A DNA stretch of 64,000 nucleotides from assembly GCF_003334335.1 (NCBI RefSeq), contig NZ_QOWQ01000008.1. The stretch is one strand, 5' to 3'. How positions within the stretch are numbered: position 1 is the first letter of the stretch; each line of letters opens with the position of its first letter. Positions 46,511-48,865 of the stretch are shown piece after piece. Source of the stretch: Escherichia coli. GTDB lineage: Bacteria > Pseudomonadota > Gammaproteobacteria > Enterobacterales > Enterobacteriaceae. The position numbers and the translations under genes are program-made. The notes under the pieces are model-generated. The model was not told the DNA's origin and searched no databases. It was given only the letters and a program-made list of their open reading frames with translations.

Positions 46511-46746
46511 GATAGTGCCCTTTTTCTGAGATGGAAAAAGGGTGTCATTCAAAATCGACATACCTTCCTTTAAGGTATTTATTTGCCCAATACATATATT
46601 GAGATTTAACTCATAATTACTTCCTAAAGTGTAATATTTTATTTTTTAATATATACGCCTACAATTTCCTGGAGTAAATAAATAACAATTAACAAGCATA
46701 ATATTGCCATTGATAAAATAGCATGCCATAAAAGGACTTTTCAGGG

Positions 46747-47925
46747 ATGAGTAATATTGTTTACCTGACAGTAACGGGAGAACAACAAGGAAGCATCTCC
46801 GCAGGTTGTGGGACTTCTGAGTCTACAGGTAATCGTTGGCAGAGCGGGCATGAGGATGAAATATTTACATTCTCACTCTTAAATAATATTAATAATACGG
46901 GGCTTGGTTCACAGTTCCATGGTATAACATTTTGTAAATTAATTGATAAAAGCACTCCATTATTTATTAATTTCATTAACAATAATGAACAATTATTTAT
47001 GGGATTTGACTTCTATCGAATAAATAGATTTGGTAGATTGGAAAAGTATTATTATATACAACTAAGAGGCGCTTTTTTATCGGCTATTCATCACCAGATC
47101 ATTGAAAACCAACTGGATACAGAAACAATAACTATTAGTTATGAATTTATCCTCTGTCAACATCTTATCGCAAATACCGAGTTCAGCTATTTGGCACTCC
47201 CTGAAAATTATAACCGTTTGTTTTTACCAAATTCAAAAAACCAAACAAATAATCGTTTCAAAACGTTAAACAGCAAAGCTATTGGCAGGCTACTTGCTGC
47301 TGGTGGCGTATACAATGGGAACATTGAAGGATTCAGAGATACTGCGGAAAAACTGGGTGGAGATGCAATAAAAGGCTATGATCAAATACTAAATGAAAAA
47401 ACAGCGGGCATAGCGATAGCAACAGCATCTATTCTTTTAACAAAGCGTTCTAATGTTGATACATATACAGAAATAAATAGTTACTTAGGCAAACTTAGAG
47501 GTCAACAAAAACTTCTTGATGGTATAGACATAATAGAAATAATATACATTAAGAGACCTTCAAAAGACTTAGCTAACTTACGAAAGGAGTTTAATAAAAC
47601 TGTAAGAAAAAATTTTCTTATCAAACTTGCAAAAACCTCCGAAGCATCTGGAAGATTCAACGCCGAAGACCTTTTAAGAATGAGAAAGGGCAATGTTCCT
47701 CTAAATTATAATGTTCACCATAAACTATCTCTAGATGATGGTGGTACTAATGATTTCGAAAATTTAGTATTAATCGAAAACGAACCATATCATAAAGTTT
47801 TTACTAACATGCAATCACGAATAGCTAAGGGAATATTAGTAGGTGAAAGCAAAATCACTCCCTGGGCCATTCCATCTGGCTCAATTTATCCTCCCATGAA
47901 AAATATTATGGACCACACAAAATGA
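46747..47925 (+). CDS. yhhZ: Hcp-domain protein with C-terminal HNH-type nuclease extension (Hcp-ET-like polymorphic toxin, YhhZ)
   Basis: 392-aa ORF. N-terminal ~150 aa resemble T6SS Hcp tube proteins (MSNIVYLTVTGEQQGSISAGCGT...GHEDEIFTFSL...). C-terminus carries an HNH-like motif NYNVHHKLSLDDGGTNDFENLVLIENEPYHKVF. Locus is visibly AT-rich. Confidence 0.85.
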   Translation: MSNIVYLTVTGEQQGSISAGCGTSESTGNRWQSGHEDEIFTFSLLNNINNTGLGSQFHGITFCKLIDKSTPLFINFINNNEQLFMGFDFYRINRFGRLEKYYYIQLRGAFLSAIHHQIIENQLDTETITISYEFILCQHLIANTEFSYLALPENYNRLFLPNSKNQTNNRFKTLNSKAIGRLLAAGGVYNGNIEGFRDTAEKLGGDAIKGYDQILNEKTAGIAIATASILLTKRSNVDTYTEINSYLGKLRGQQKLLDGIDIIEIIYIKRPSKDLANLRKEFNKTVRKNFLIKLAKTSEASGRFNAEDLLRMRKGNVPLNYNVHHKLSLDDGGTNDFENLVLIENEPYHKVFTNMQSRIAKGILVGESKITPWAIPSGSIYPPMKNIMDHTK

Positions 47926-48416
47926 TGACTAAAACCCAAATAAATAAATTAATAAAAATGATGAATGATTTAGACTATCCATTTGAAGCACCGCTCAAGG
48001 AATCATTTATTGAAAGTATAATCCAAATAGAATTTAATTCTAATTCAACTAATTGCCTGGAGAAGTTATGTAATGAAGTTAGTATTCTTTTTAAGAATCA
48101 ACCTGATTATCTTACTTTTTTAAGAGCAATGGATGGATTCGAAGTTAATGGATTACGATTATTTAGCCTCTCGATTCCAGAACCTTCAGTTAAAAACCTT
48201 TTTGCCGTAAATGAATTTTATAGAAATAATGATGATTTCATAAACCCTGATCTACAAGAACGGTTAGTGATCGGGGATTATAGCATTTCAATATTTACTT
48301 ATGACATTAAAAGTAACTTTTTTGAAATTAGAGATAATATTGGCACAGAAAATATATTCAGTTCGTTTAGTGATTTCTCTTCATTCTTAAACGAAATCAT
48401 GGACAGTTGTTCATAA
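47922..48416 (+). CDS. yrhA: YrhA, candidate cognate immunity protein for the YhhZ nuclease (function inferred from position only)
   Basis: 164-aa ORF MMTKTQINKLIKMMNDLDYPFEAPLKESFIESIIQIEF...; start overlaps the yhhZ stop by 4 bp (ATGA at 47922-47925); AT-rich; acidic small protein. Confidence 0.7.
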   Translation: MMTKTQINKLIKMMNDLDYPFEAPLKESFIESIIQIEFNSNSTNCLEKLCNEVSILFKNQPDYLTFLRAMDGFEVNGLRLFSLSIPEPSVKNLFAVNEFYRNNDDFINPDLQERLVIGDYSISIFTYDIKSNFFEIRDNIGTENIFSSFSDFSSFLNEIMDSCS

Positions 48417-48510
48417 TAATCAAAAGGAAACAAAAATCATTGTAAACCATGCCATCTTTTTAGAGATTACCAGCAGAAAATTCCTTGTTCGAAATTTAGC
48501 AGTGCAAGCT

Positions 48511-48666
48511 ATGGAAAAACTTACAACGGAACTACACTCCTTAAGTGAGATGGACCGAAGACATGTAGTCTCTATTTTAGCCGAAATAGCTAATGGCTAT
48601 GATGATTTTAATGACATGTTGATTTATTTAGAATTTTACCCGAATCATAAGATTCTGATATCTTAA
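48511..48666 (+). CDS. yrhD: Small 51-aa ORF in the yrhA-yrhB spacer (possibly YrhD)
   Basis: Hand translation: ATG 48511 ... TAA 48664-48666 gives MEKLTTELHSLSEMDRRHVVSILAEIANGYDDFNDMLIYLEFYPNHKILIS. Below the ORF-track size cutoff. Gene name assigned from position and remembered length only. Confidence 0.4.
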   Translation: MEKLTTELHSLSEMDRRHVVSILAEIANGYDDFNDMLIYLEFYPNHKILIS

Positions 48667-48865
48667 ATAAGAAAATCCCGTTCGACGTTCTGAAAAAGAA
48701 ATCATAAAATATTAGCAGATACTTATTTCGTGACTATATCTTATCCGATGAACTTTTTTCAAAACCAGCATTTAATAATATCTTTGACGAAGATGAACGC
48801 GTCTTTGCTCAATGTATCACACAGGAATAATAATATAACACTCAACAATAATATTTATTATAATT

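Follow-up and report, generated by a model that had tools for sequence, protein, structure and literature searches.

The yhhZ-yrhA islet of Escherichia coli, a probable horizontally acquired toxin cassette of the Hcp-ET1/ETi1 type

In the 64,000-nucleotide stretch of Escherichia coli DNA analyzed here (RefSeq assembly GCF_003334335.1, contig NZ_QOWQ01000008.1; referred to as the window), an AT-rich islet between yhhY and ggt carries yhhZ, the gene for an Hcp tube protein fused to an HNH-type nuclease domain, and yrhA, which overlaps its end. We consider it very probable that yhhZ-yrhA was acquired horizontally and represents a polymorphic-toxin cassette of the Hcp-ET1/ETi1 type, a pair that is already known under these names. 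The initial annotation, made from the letters of the window, had described an islet at 46511-48865 with an orphan Hcp–nuclease fusion and a downstream small open reading frame (ORF) in a toxin/immunity arrangement. The evidence on the two proteins, on the site that they occupy and on their distribution among E. coli genomes is presented below, and the competing explanations are weighed against it.

The YhhZ toxin and its partner YrhA

The foreign origin of the islet is indicated by its composition. The G+C content of 46511-48865 was 31.8% as compared with 52.2% for the whole window, and the sharp drop seen by eye in the initial annotation was reproduced against both flanking genes, yhhY (51.7%) and ggt (54.9%). 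The two cassette genes themselves reached 33.9% (yhhZ) and 28.5% (yrhA), and their G+C content at third codon positions (GC3) was 0.26 and 0.24, respectively, in comparison to 0.57 for yhhY.

yhhZ (46747..47925, + strand) encodes a protein of 392 amino acids. Residues 1-147 (46747..47187, + strand) form an Hcp (TssD) tube-protein domain, which was matched over its whole length by NCBIfam TIGR03344 (2.3e-33, 115.4 bits at a cut-off of 58.9) and, in addition, by Pfam T6SS_HCP PF05638 (5.7e-11) and the PDB entries of Hcp3 (3he1, 4.7e-11) and Hcp (6a2v, 1.6e-9). The Hcp-like N-terminus proposed earlier is therefore well above noise. The AlphaFold2 (AF2) model was poor in this half of the protein, with a predicted local distance difference test score (pLDDT) below 35 for residues 1-174, because the underlying alignment mixed Hcp with DUF8093 N-termini, and a Foldseek search with the whole model placed Hcp structures at the top of the list but weakly (E 6e-3, TM 0.35), the HNH matches being weak too. 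YhhZ was termed an "evolved Hcp" in a 2009 paper and classed among the His-Me finger nucleases (group 32) in 2017. RefSeq gives the same accession, WP_000065894.1, to YhhZ in both K-12-derived genomes and genomes identical to the window.

The C-terminal part of YhhZ, residues 244-385 (47476..47901, + strand), was assigned as an HNH (His-Me finger) nuclease toxin core on the basis of its motif, the AF2 model and family profiles. The HH...N...H motif NVHHKLSLDDGGTNDFENLVLIENEPYHKVF occupies residues 322-352 (47710..47802, + strand). Residues H324, H325, N335, N339, and H349 were invariant in all three alignments, comprising 32 close relatives and as many as 60 distant ones per sample, and D330 and D331 were invariant in the closest set of relatives. 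The AF2 model of residues 245-385 had block-mean pLDDT values of ~67-94 and contained two strands (321-325 and 340-344) followed by a helix (348-360) with block-mean values of ~87-94; as modelled, this beta-beta-alpha element is that of a His-Me finger. The profile of the core family matched the HNH domain of Cas8f-HNH across the motif (4.8e-5), the DNase of pyocin AP41 (0.019) and the colicin chain 6ere_B (0.077), whereas Pfam HNH was found at E ≤ 0.1 in 58 of 60 relatives and at E ≤ 0.001 in 10 of them. Together, the invariant residues, the modelled element and the family matches make the HNH assignment solid at the family level and show that the domain is not degenerate, contrary to a remark made in 2009.

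An exhaustive search with residues 172-392 recovered 648 representative proteins. Most of them matched residues 244-385 only, at their extreme C-terminus, and the lengths among the listed matches ranged from ~60 to 1542 amino acids. The N-terminal domains identified in a sample of 60 included LXG, PT-TG, PAAR, Tox-PAAR-like, DUF4280, Rhs, and MuF_C; NCBIfam searches with ten distant relatives of the toxin core gave almost no matches. A toxin core placed on such varied N-terminal domains is what marks the C-terminal domain of a polymorphic toxin (in the sense of Zhang, Aravind et al. 2012).

Between the Hcp domain and the toxin core lies a conserved helical linker, or "handle" (residues 172-243, 47260..47475, + strand), with the motif NSKAxGRLLAAGGVYNGNIEGFR, rich in invariant Gly, Asn, and Leu residues and joining the delivery domain to the toxin. 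In AF2, four helices were predicted at 176-233. The alignment used for scoring conservation held 13 sequences of the Hcp type and 19 of the DUF8093 type. Residues 172-232 were the best-conserved part of YhhZ, reaching a mean majority fraction of 0.87 while the HNH motif was at 0.79, and the C-terminal half as a whole gave 0.63-0.87 versus 0.45 for the Hcp half, the latter value being low partly because the alignment mixes two unrelated domains, Hcp and DUF8093. The hydrophobic residues 218-232 were also considered as a transmembrane segment; this reading was rejected, since the Kyte-Doolittle value over 19 residues, 1.18, falls short of the 1.6 normally required.

In the close relatives the linker and toxin were 58-70% identical to those of YhhZ and the N-terminus was either Hcp (in E. 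coli and Citrobacter) or the uncharacterized Pfam domain DUF8093 (in Enterobacter, Leclercia, Franconibacter, Erwinia, Pantoea, and Serratia). Kinship between Hcp and DUF8093 was ruled out by an hhalign probability of 0.1%. For DUF8093 itself, no solved relative was found in the PDB search and no paper in the literature library that was searched. In Enterobacter and the other genera the DUF8093 fusions formed isolated two-gene cassettes with a YrhA-type gene, and no T6SS (type VI secretion system) genes were present within 10 kb of them; the cassette of Enterobacter roggenkampii CP056148.1 (locus L005, 10001-11663) is an example, further ones being loci L003, L004, and L006.

Some E. coli strains have a second orphan Hcp-fusion islet, located between ysgA and metE and split by the insertion sequence IS2 in strain MFDS1022581 (locus L016, 2114-4831). 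The Hcp fusion encoded there has only linker residues 184-230 in common with YhhZ, at 64% identity; its C-terminus is unrelated to that of YhhZ and had no Pfam match, and an 81-amino-acid ORF comes after it. A linker common to Hcp and DUF8093 fusions, and joined to a different toxin at ysgA-metE, points to a shared handle that connects delivery domains with interchangeable toxins. It could promote recombination, act as an adaptor, or assist translocation. Two hallmarks of polymorphic toxins were thus found for this locus, namely that a conserved junction precedes the variable toxin and that an orphan immunity gene (yrhB, described below) lies nearby.

The second cassette gene, yrhA (47922..48416, + strand), encodes 164 amino acids and is a candidate cognate immunity gene, orthologous to ETi1. 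Its ATG overlaps the TGA stop of yhhZ by 4 bp (junction aaaATGAtg), as was stated in the initial annotation. NCBIfam NF038335 (YrhA family) matched YrhA at 1.7e-35. A YrhA-family gene was found downstream of the toxin in every context examined, whatever the N-terminal domain. In Citrobacter koseri, where the cassette is likewise located between yhhY and ggt, the relative of YrhA was 68% identical; in Enterobacter roggenkampii, where the gene follows a DUF8093 fusion between thiamine and sucrose genes, the identity was 58%. Such a pairing is what would be expected for a cognate immunity gene, and the toxin/immunity arrangement suggested earlier is upheld by its recurrence in other genera and by its agreement with the published Hcp-ET1/ETi1. 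The fold of YrhA was approached with little success. Some source databases label its relatives "SMI1/KNR4 family", a weak SUKH_6 match (0.023) was seen in one of 17 relatives, and the profile search of the PDB with YrhA gave no relative, only chance matches to antibodies.

The correspondence with Hcp-ET1/ETi1 was established through E. coli 55989. The genes at yhhY-ggt in this strain encode proteins identical to those of the window in 390 of 392 (YhhZ) and 162 of 164 (YrhA) positions. According to a 2024 preprint, Hcp-ET1 and ETI1 derive from O104:H4 C227-11 and 55989, and a 99%-identical protein of STEC (E. coli that produce Shiga toxin) is an orphan Hcp whose C-terminus is an HNH/colicin-type endonuclease and whose gene lies apart from both the T6SS cluster and the vgrG islands. 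The sole other E. coli locus found to encode a linker-sharing Hcp fusion, ysgA-metE, is empty in 55989; therefore, the Hcp-ET1 of 55989 is the yhhZ gene. As summarized in reviews of Ma et al. 2017 (Virulence 8:1189), Hcp-ET1 (AAF13_24945) inhibits growth via its HNH-DNase activity, its delivery depends on T6SS2, and ETi1 neutralizes it.

The variable yhhY-ggt site and carriage of the islet

The left edge of the islet coincides with the yhhY stop codon (46510), and homology to the empty-site, yrhB-only, and O157 alleles ends at 46508-46510. An AT-rich intergenic leader (46511..46746, + strand; 29.7% G+C), presumably the promoter region, separates this stop from the start of yhhZ. On the right side homology resumes at 48850 with the yrhB-only allele, at 49152 with the O157 allele, and at 49188 with the empty allele. 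Comparison with the empty-site genomes showed that the variable segment continues through yrhB to ~49151-49187, so that the islet borders first proposed (46511-48865) hold on the left, and on the right have to be moved outward to include yrhB. A terminator-like hairpin (49157..49180, − strand), made of a stem of 10 pairs and then a run of T and located downstream of ggt, marks the right edge of the variable site. The promoter/terminator scan of the region performed no better than on shuffled sequence. Among signs of a mobile element, flanking repeats, att-like sites, a tRNA gene, and an integrase were looked for at the islet edges and none was found; the repeats nearby were short AT-rich chance repeats, and the Rfam scan, which would include tRNA, revealed no family there. 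The one Rfam match was the small RNA RyhB (RF00057, 83 bits; 45807-45871, − strand), at its known position between yhhX and yhhY, ~640 bp upstream of the islet and beyond yhhY.

Five allelic states of the yhhY-ggt site were found. The first is empty, the second contains yrhB only (strain EM22-18-53), the third is the full yhhZ-yrhA-yrhD-yrhB islet as in the window, the fourth has a DUF4225 gene (O157:H7), and the fifth is the full islet with an IS1 element in yrhA (K-12). In O157:H7 Z1825 (locus L009, 1622-2533) the lone DUF4225 gene replaces yhhZ-yrhA, and yhhY-ggt can therefore be called a hot spot, its allelic states numbering at least five. A weak DUF4225 match (E 0.012) was also noted in one distant relative of the toxin family.

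Two further genes lie in the islet. yrhD (48502..48666, + strand) is a small ORF, listed with 54 amino acids and annotated in RefSeq as "protein YrhD" with 51; the family search gave no match for YrhD, the reading frame has an internal stop in strain F11, and instead of a gene it may be what is left of an older cassette. yrhB (48866..49150, + strand; 45.6% G+C) encodes 94 amino acids and is an orphan immunity-type gene of the Imm35 family: Pfam PF15567 matched residues 5-83 at 4.6e-23, covering model positions 1-85 of 85. There is no cognate toxin nearby. yrhB stands alone at the site in EM22-18-53 and is absent from the empty-site and O157 alleles; its G+C content exceeds that of the rest of the islet, and it seems to form a layer of its own in the variable site, possibly an older one.

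The genomic context was read from complete genomes of other strains. At least 12 complete E. coli genomes, of 4.57-5.29 Mb, were ~100% identical over window positions 36000-60000. In one of them ~54 genes are annotated from envZ to livJ, across the span that matches the whole window, and none of them is a T6SS gene except yhhZ itself (tssD in RefSeq), in line with the earlier statement that the window holds no T6SS structural gene. In 55989 a complete T6SS cluster is located at aspV, ~3.7 Mb from the cassette.

The islet, counted as carried when at least 80% of a 3-kb query was present, occurred in 3758 of 5426 complete E. coli genomes (~69%) and was missing from ~31%. The tssC gene of 55989 was detected in 2192 of the 5426. 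Hence at least 1566 of the 3758 carriers (≥42%) are without the 55989-type T6SS, a figure that is a counting bound for this T6SS type, with the other types outside the count, and not a co-occurrence table.

Both genes showed a clear, long-term signature of purifying selection when compared with Citrobacter, as judged from substitution patterns. The proportions of nonsynonymous and synonymous differences (pN/pS) versus Citrobacter koseri were 0.15/0.77 for yhhZ and 0.21/0.77 for yrhA, with pS saturated, and the ratio of nonsynonymous to synonymous substitution rates (dN/dS) within E. coli was 0.49 for yhhZ and 0.18 for yrhA.

Another small variable site was noticed elsewhere in the window. Between glpD and glgP (28671-28892, − strand) the window-type genome holds only a yzgL pseudogene fragment, and E. 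coli 55989 (locus L002, 5817-9429) has four extra genes there, three hypothetical ones and one for a PstS-family binding protein.

Proposed mechanism and competing explanations

YhhZ is built of three modules, an Hcp tube domain, a helical linker, and an HNH DNase of 140 residues. We propose that, where the cell has a compatible T6SS (the published work concerns T6SS2), a single YhhZ subunit would join ordinary Hcp subunits in a ring of the tube with the toxin held in the lumen; a structural paper of 2026 argues that a ring has room for only one Hcp-ET, together with five regular Hcps. The tube would be fired into a neighboring bacterium, in which the HNH domain would degrade DNA, and YrhA, produced from the translationally coupled downstream gene, would neutralize the nuclease in the producer and its sister cells. 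yrhB represents a further orphan immunity-type gene at the hot spot. Where a lineage has no T6SS, as is the case for K-12 and B, the cassette cannot be delivered and is probably an H-NS-bound, largely silent, stranded module, with an immunity gene that may go on shielding the cell from armed relatives. The domain architecture, intact active-site motif, gene pairing, orthology, and population distribution used in this scheme come from the present analysis; DNase toxicity, T6SS2 dependence, and neutralization by ETi1 come from the literature; the incorporation into the ring and the silencing in the lineage of the window are what we infer.

Several observations weigh against the assignment of yhhZ-yrhA as an Hcp-ET1/ETi1-type cassette. 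The link between Hcp-ET1 and the yhhY-ggt site is indirect, as it consists of a chain of steps via strain 55989, and the function is known second-hand, from reviews and a preprint. The HNH-type motif that the initial annotation had pointed out, clear at the family level, gave a weak Pfam HNH match (0.013) when YhhZ was searched as a single sequence, and the 2009 paper labelled this domain a "degenerate" HNH. The candidate immunity role of YrhA is based on position, co-variation, and literature; the Pfam search gave no match for the protein, and its AF2 model, built from 17 sequences, was unusable (pLDDT 42). In K-12 (AML003_ev01, locus L014, 1723-2865; window position ~48335) IS1 cuts yrhA to 138 amino acids and leaves yhhZ intact, so that a complete toxin gene is tolerated beside a damaged immunity gene; it follows that either the toxin is unexpressed there, or its native level does not harm the producer, or the shortened YrhA is functional. 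Finally, with no T6SS in the window and none in its K-12-type relatives, delivery may be impossible in this lineage. According to the initial annotation, the choice between delivery by a distant T6SS, a silenced relic, and a stand-alone function lay beyond the sequence. This holds in part only, as the choice can be narrowed with the carrier counts and with the literature, which reports T6SS2-dependent delivery in strains that possess this system.

Silencing deserves the most serious consideration among the alternatives, and we regard it as possible, though rather unlikely, that in a phylogroup A, K-12-like lineage the cassette is an inactive relic, kept as harmless under H-NS repression and slowly decaying. 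K-12 and B carry the islet and, according to a review, have no T6SS genes, a situation extended by the carriers without the 55989-type T6SS (at least 1566 of 3758). Signs of decay are visible as well: besides the truncated yrhA of K-12 and the yrhD stop in F11, yhhZ is interrupted by IS3 or IS1 in some strains, a spontaneous deletion of yhhZ-yrhA arose in topA mutants of MG1655, for which no growth defect was reported, and ~31% of the genomes are entirely devoid of the islet. A table in PMC3661553 lists "promoter islands" within yhhZ and yrhA with a "+" in its section on H-NS complex formation, as far as the table can be interpreted apart from its column headings. On the other hand, both ORFs of the window are intact and the catalytic residues are present, and purifying selection is evident both versus Citrobacter (pN 0.15-0.21 at saturated pS) and from the dN/dS ratios within E. 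coli. The full-length YhhZ cluster comprises 13190 member sequences as compared with a few hundred for each truncated form. Furthermore, the immunity gene would be useful to a T6SS-less cell attacked by relatives armed with Hcp-ET1.

The isolated DUF8093 cassettes, in which linker, toxin, and YrhA-type immunity gene occur with no T6SS genes within 10 kb, together with the persistence of the E. coli cassette in many genomes without the 55989-type T6SS, could also speak for a role independent of T6SS, for example as an intracellular toxin–antitoxin or abortive-infection module or a lysis-released bacteriocin, with the Hcp domain acting only as an oligomerization scaffold. We find this very improbable. 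The Hcp domain scored well over the curated TssD cut-off, T6SS2-dependent delivery is reported in published work, and PADLOC returned no match at E ≤ 0.1 for YhhZ, YrhA, YrhD, YrhB, or a DUF8093 relative; elsewhere the partners of the toxin core are domains linked to secretion (LXG, PAAR, Rhs) and not those of defense systems. A related notion, that the cassette is kept for a use other than T6SS attack where the matching T6SS is missing, with the linker as a portable delivery or translocation module for a route other than the Hcp tube, is improbable too; it draws on the joining of the HNH toxin to Hcp or DUF8093 and of Hcp to an unrelated toxin at the second locus. It is hardly credible that YhhZ is a structural Hcp only, a spare tube protein with a catalytically inert C-terminal extension. 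The RefSeq name "tube protein TssD" in many genomes, the weak single-sequence HNH match, and the 2009 description would fit such a protein, but the HH...N...H residues are invariant in the 32 close and 60 distant relatives, the C-terminal half is better conserved than the N-terminal one (with the reservation about mixed N-termini made above), the toxin has a downstream gene of its own that varies along with it, and toxicity that depends on the DNase is described in the literature, as summarized in the reviews.

A polymorphic-toxin cassette of the Hcp-ET1/ETi1 type thus remains our preferred reading of yhhZ-yrhA. As a finding it adds little, the locus having been named in K-12 and its orthologs characterized experimentally as Hcp-ET1/ETi1. 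Its value lies in offering a clean example of a stranded weapon, carried by ~69% of genomes and maintained under purifying selection with at least 42% of the carriers lacking the 55989-type T6SS. The five allelic states of yhhY-ggt may be used for studying the swapping of toxin cassettes, and the linker common to Hcp and DUF8093 fusions is worth following.

Comparison with known systems

The closest counterpart of the window's cassette is Hcp-ET1/ETi1 of STEC and enteroaggregative E. coli (strains STEC004, O104:H4 C227-11, and 55989), with which it shares the locus (in 55989), the Hcp plus HNH architecture, and the downstream immunity gene. The two differ by two substitutions per protein, and otherwise in context only, there being no T6SS in the window and none in its K-12-type relatives. 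The YhhZ/YrhA/YrhB set of K-12 (b3442 region) has the same YhhZ accession and the same neighboring genes as the window, but its yrhA is disrupted by IS1 (138 amino acids), whereas that of the window is uninterrupted (164 amino acids).

The DUF8093-HNH proteins resemble YhhZ in the linker and HNH regions (58-70% identity), in their total length of ~380 amino acids, and in the YrhA-family gene downstream, and differ from it in the N-terminal 165 residues, which are unrelated to Hcp. The DNases of colicins E7/E9 and pyocins S2/AP41 are competition toxins of the HNH (beta-beta-alpha-metal) type, each with a small neutralizing protein encoded immediately downstream. Their similarity to the YhhZ core is only remote (profile E 0.019-0.27), and they enter the target cell by receptor-mediated uptake, in contrast to YhhZ, which is a fusion to a T6SS tube protein. 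Moreover, none of the tests made here connected YrhA, with its 164 amino acids, with the four-helix Im proteins. The Hcp-ET3-4/Usp-type fusions of uropathogenic E. coli follow the same plan as YhhZ, an Hcp that carries a nuclease toxin at its C-terminus and has immunity genes downstream. Their toxins belong to the pyocin S3 and colicin DNase families and they occupy another locus, where several duplicated immunity genes are present, while in the window one candidate cognate gene is accompanied by the unrelated Imm35 gene.

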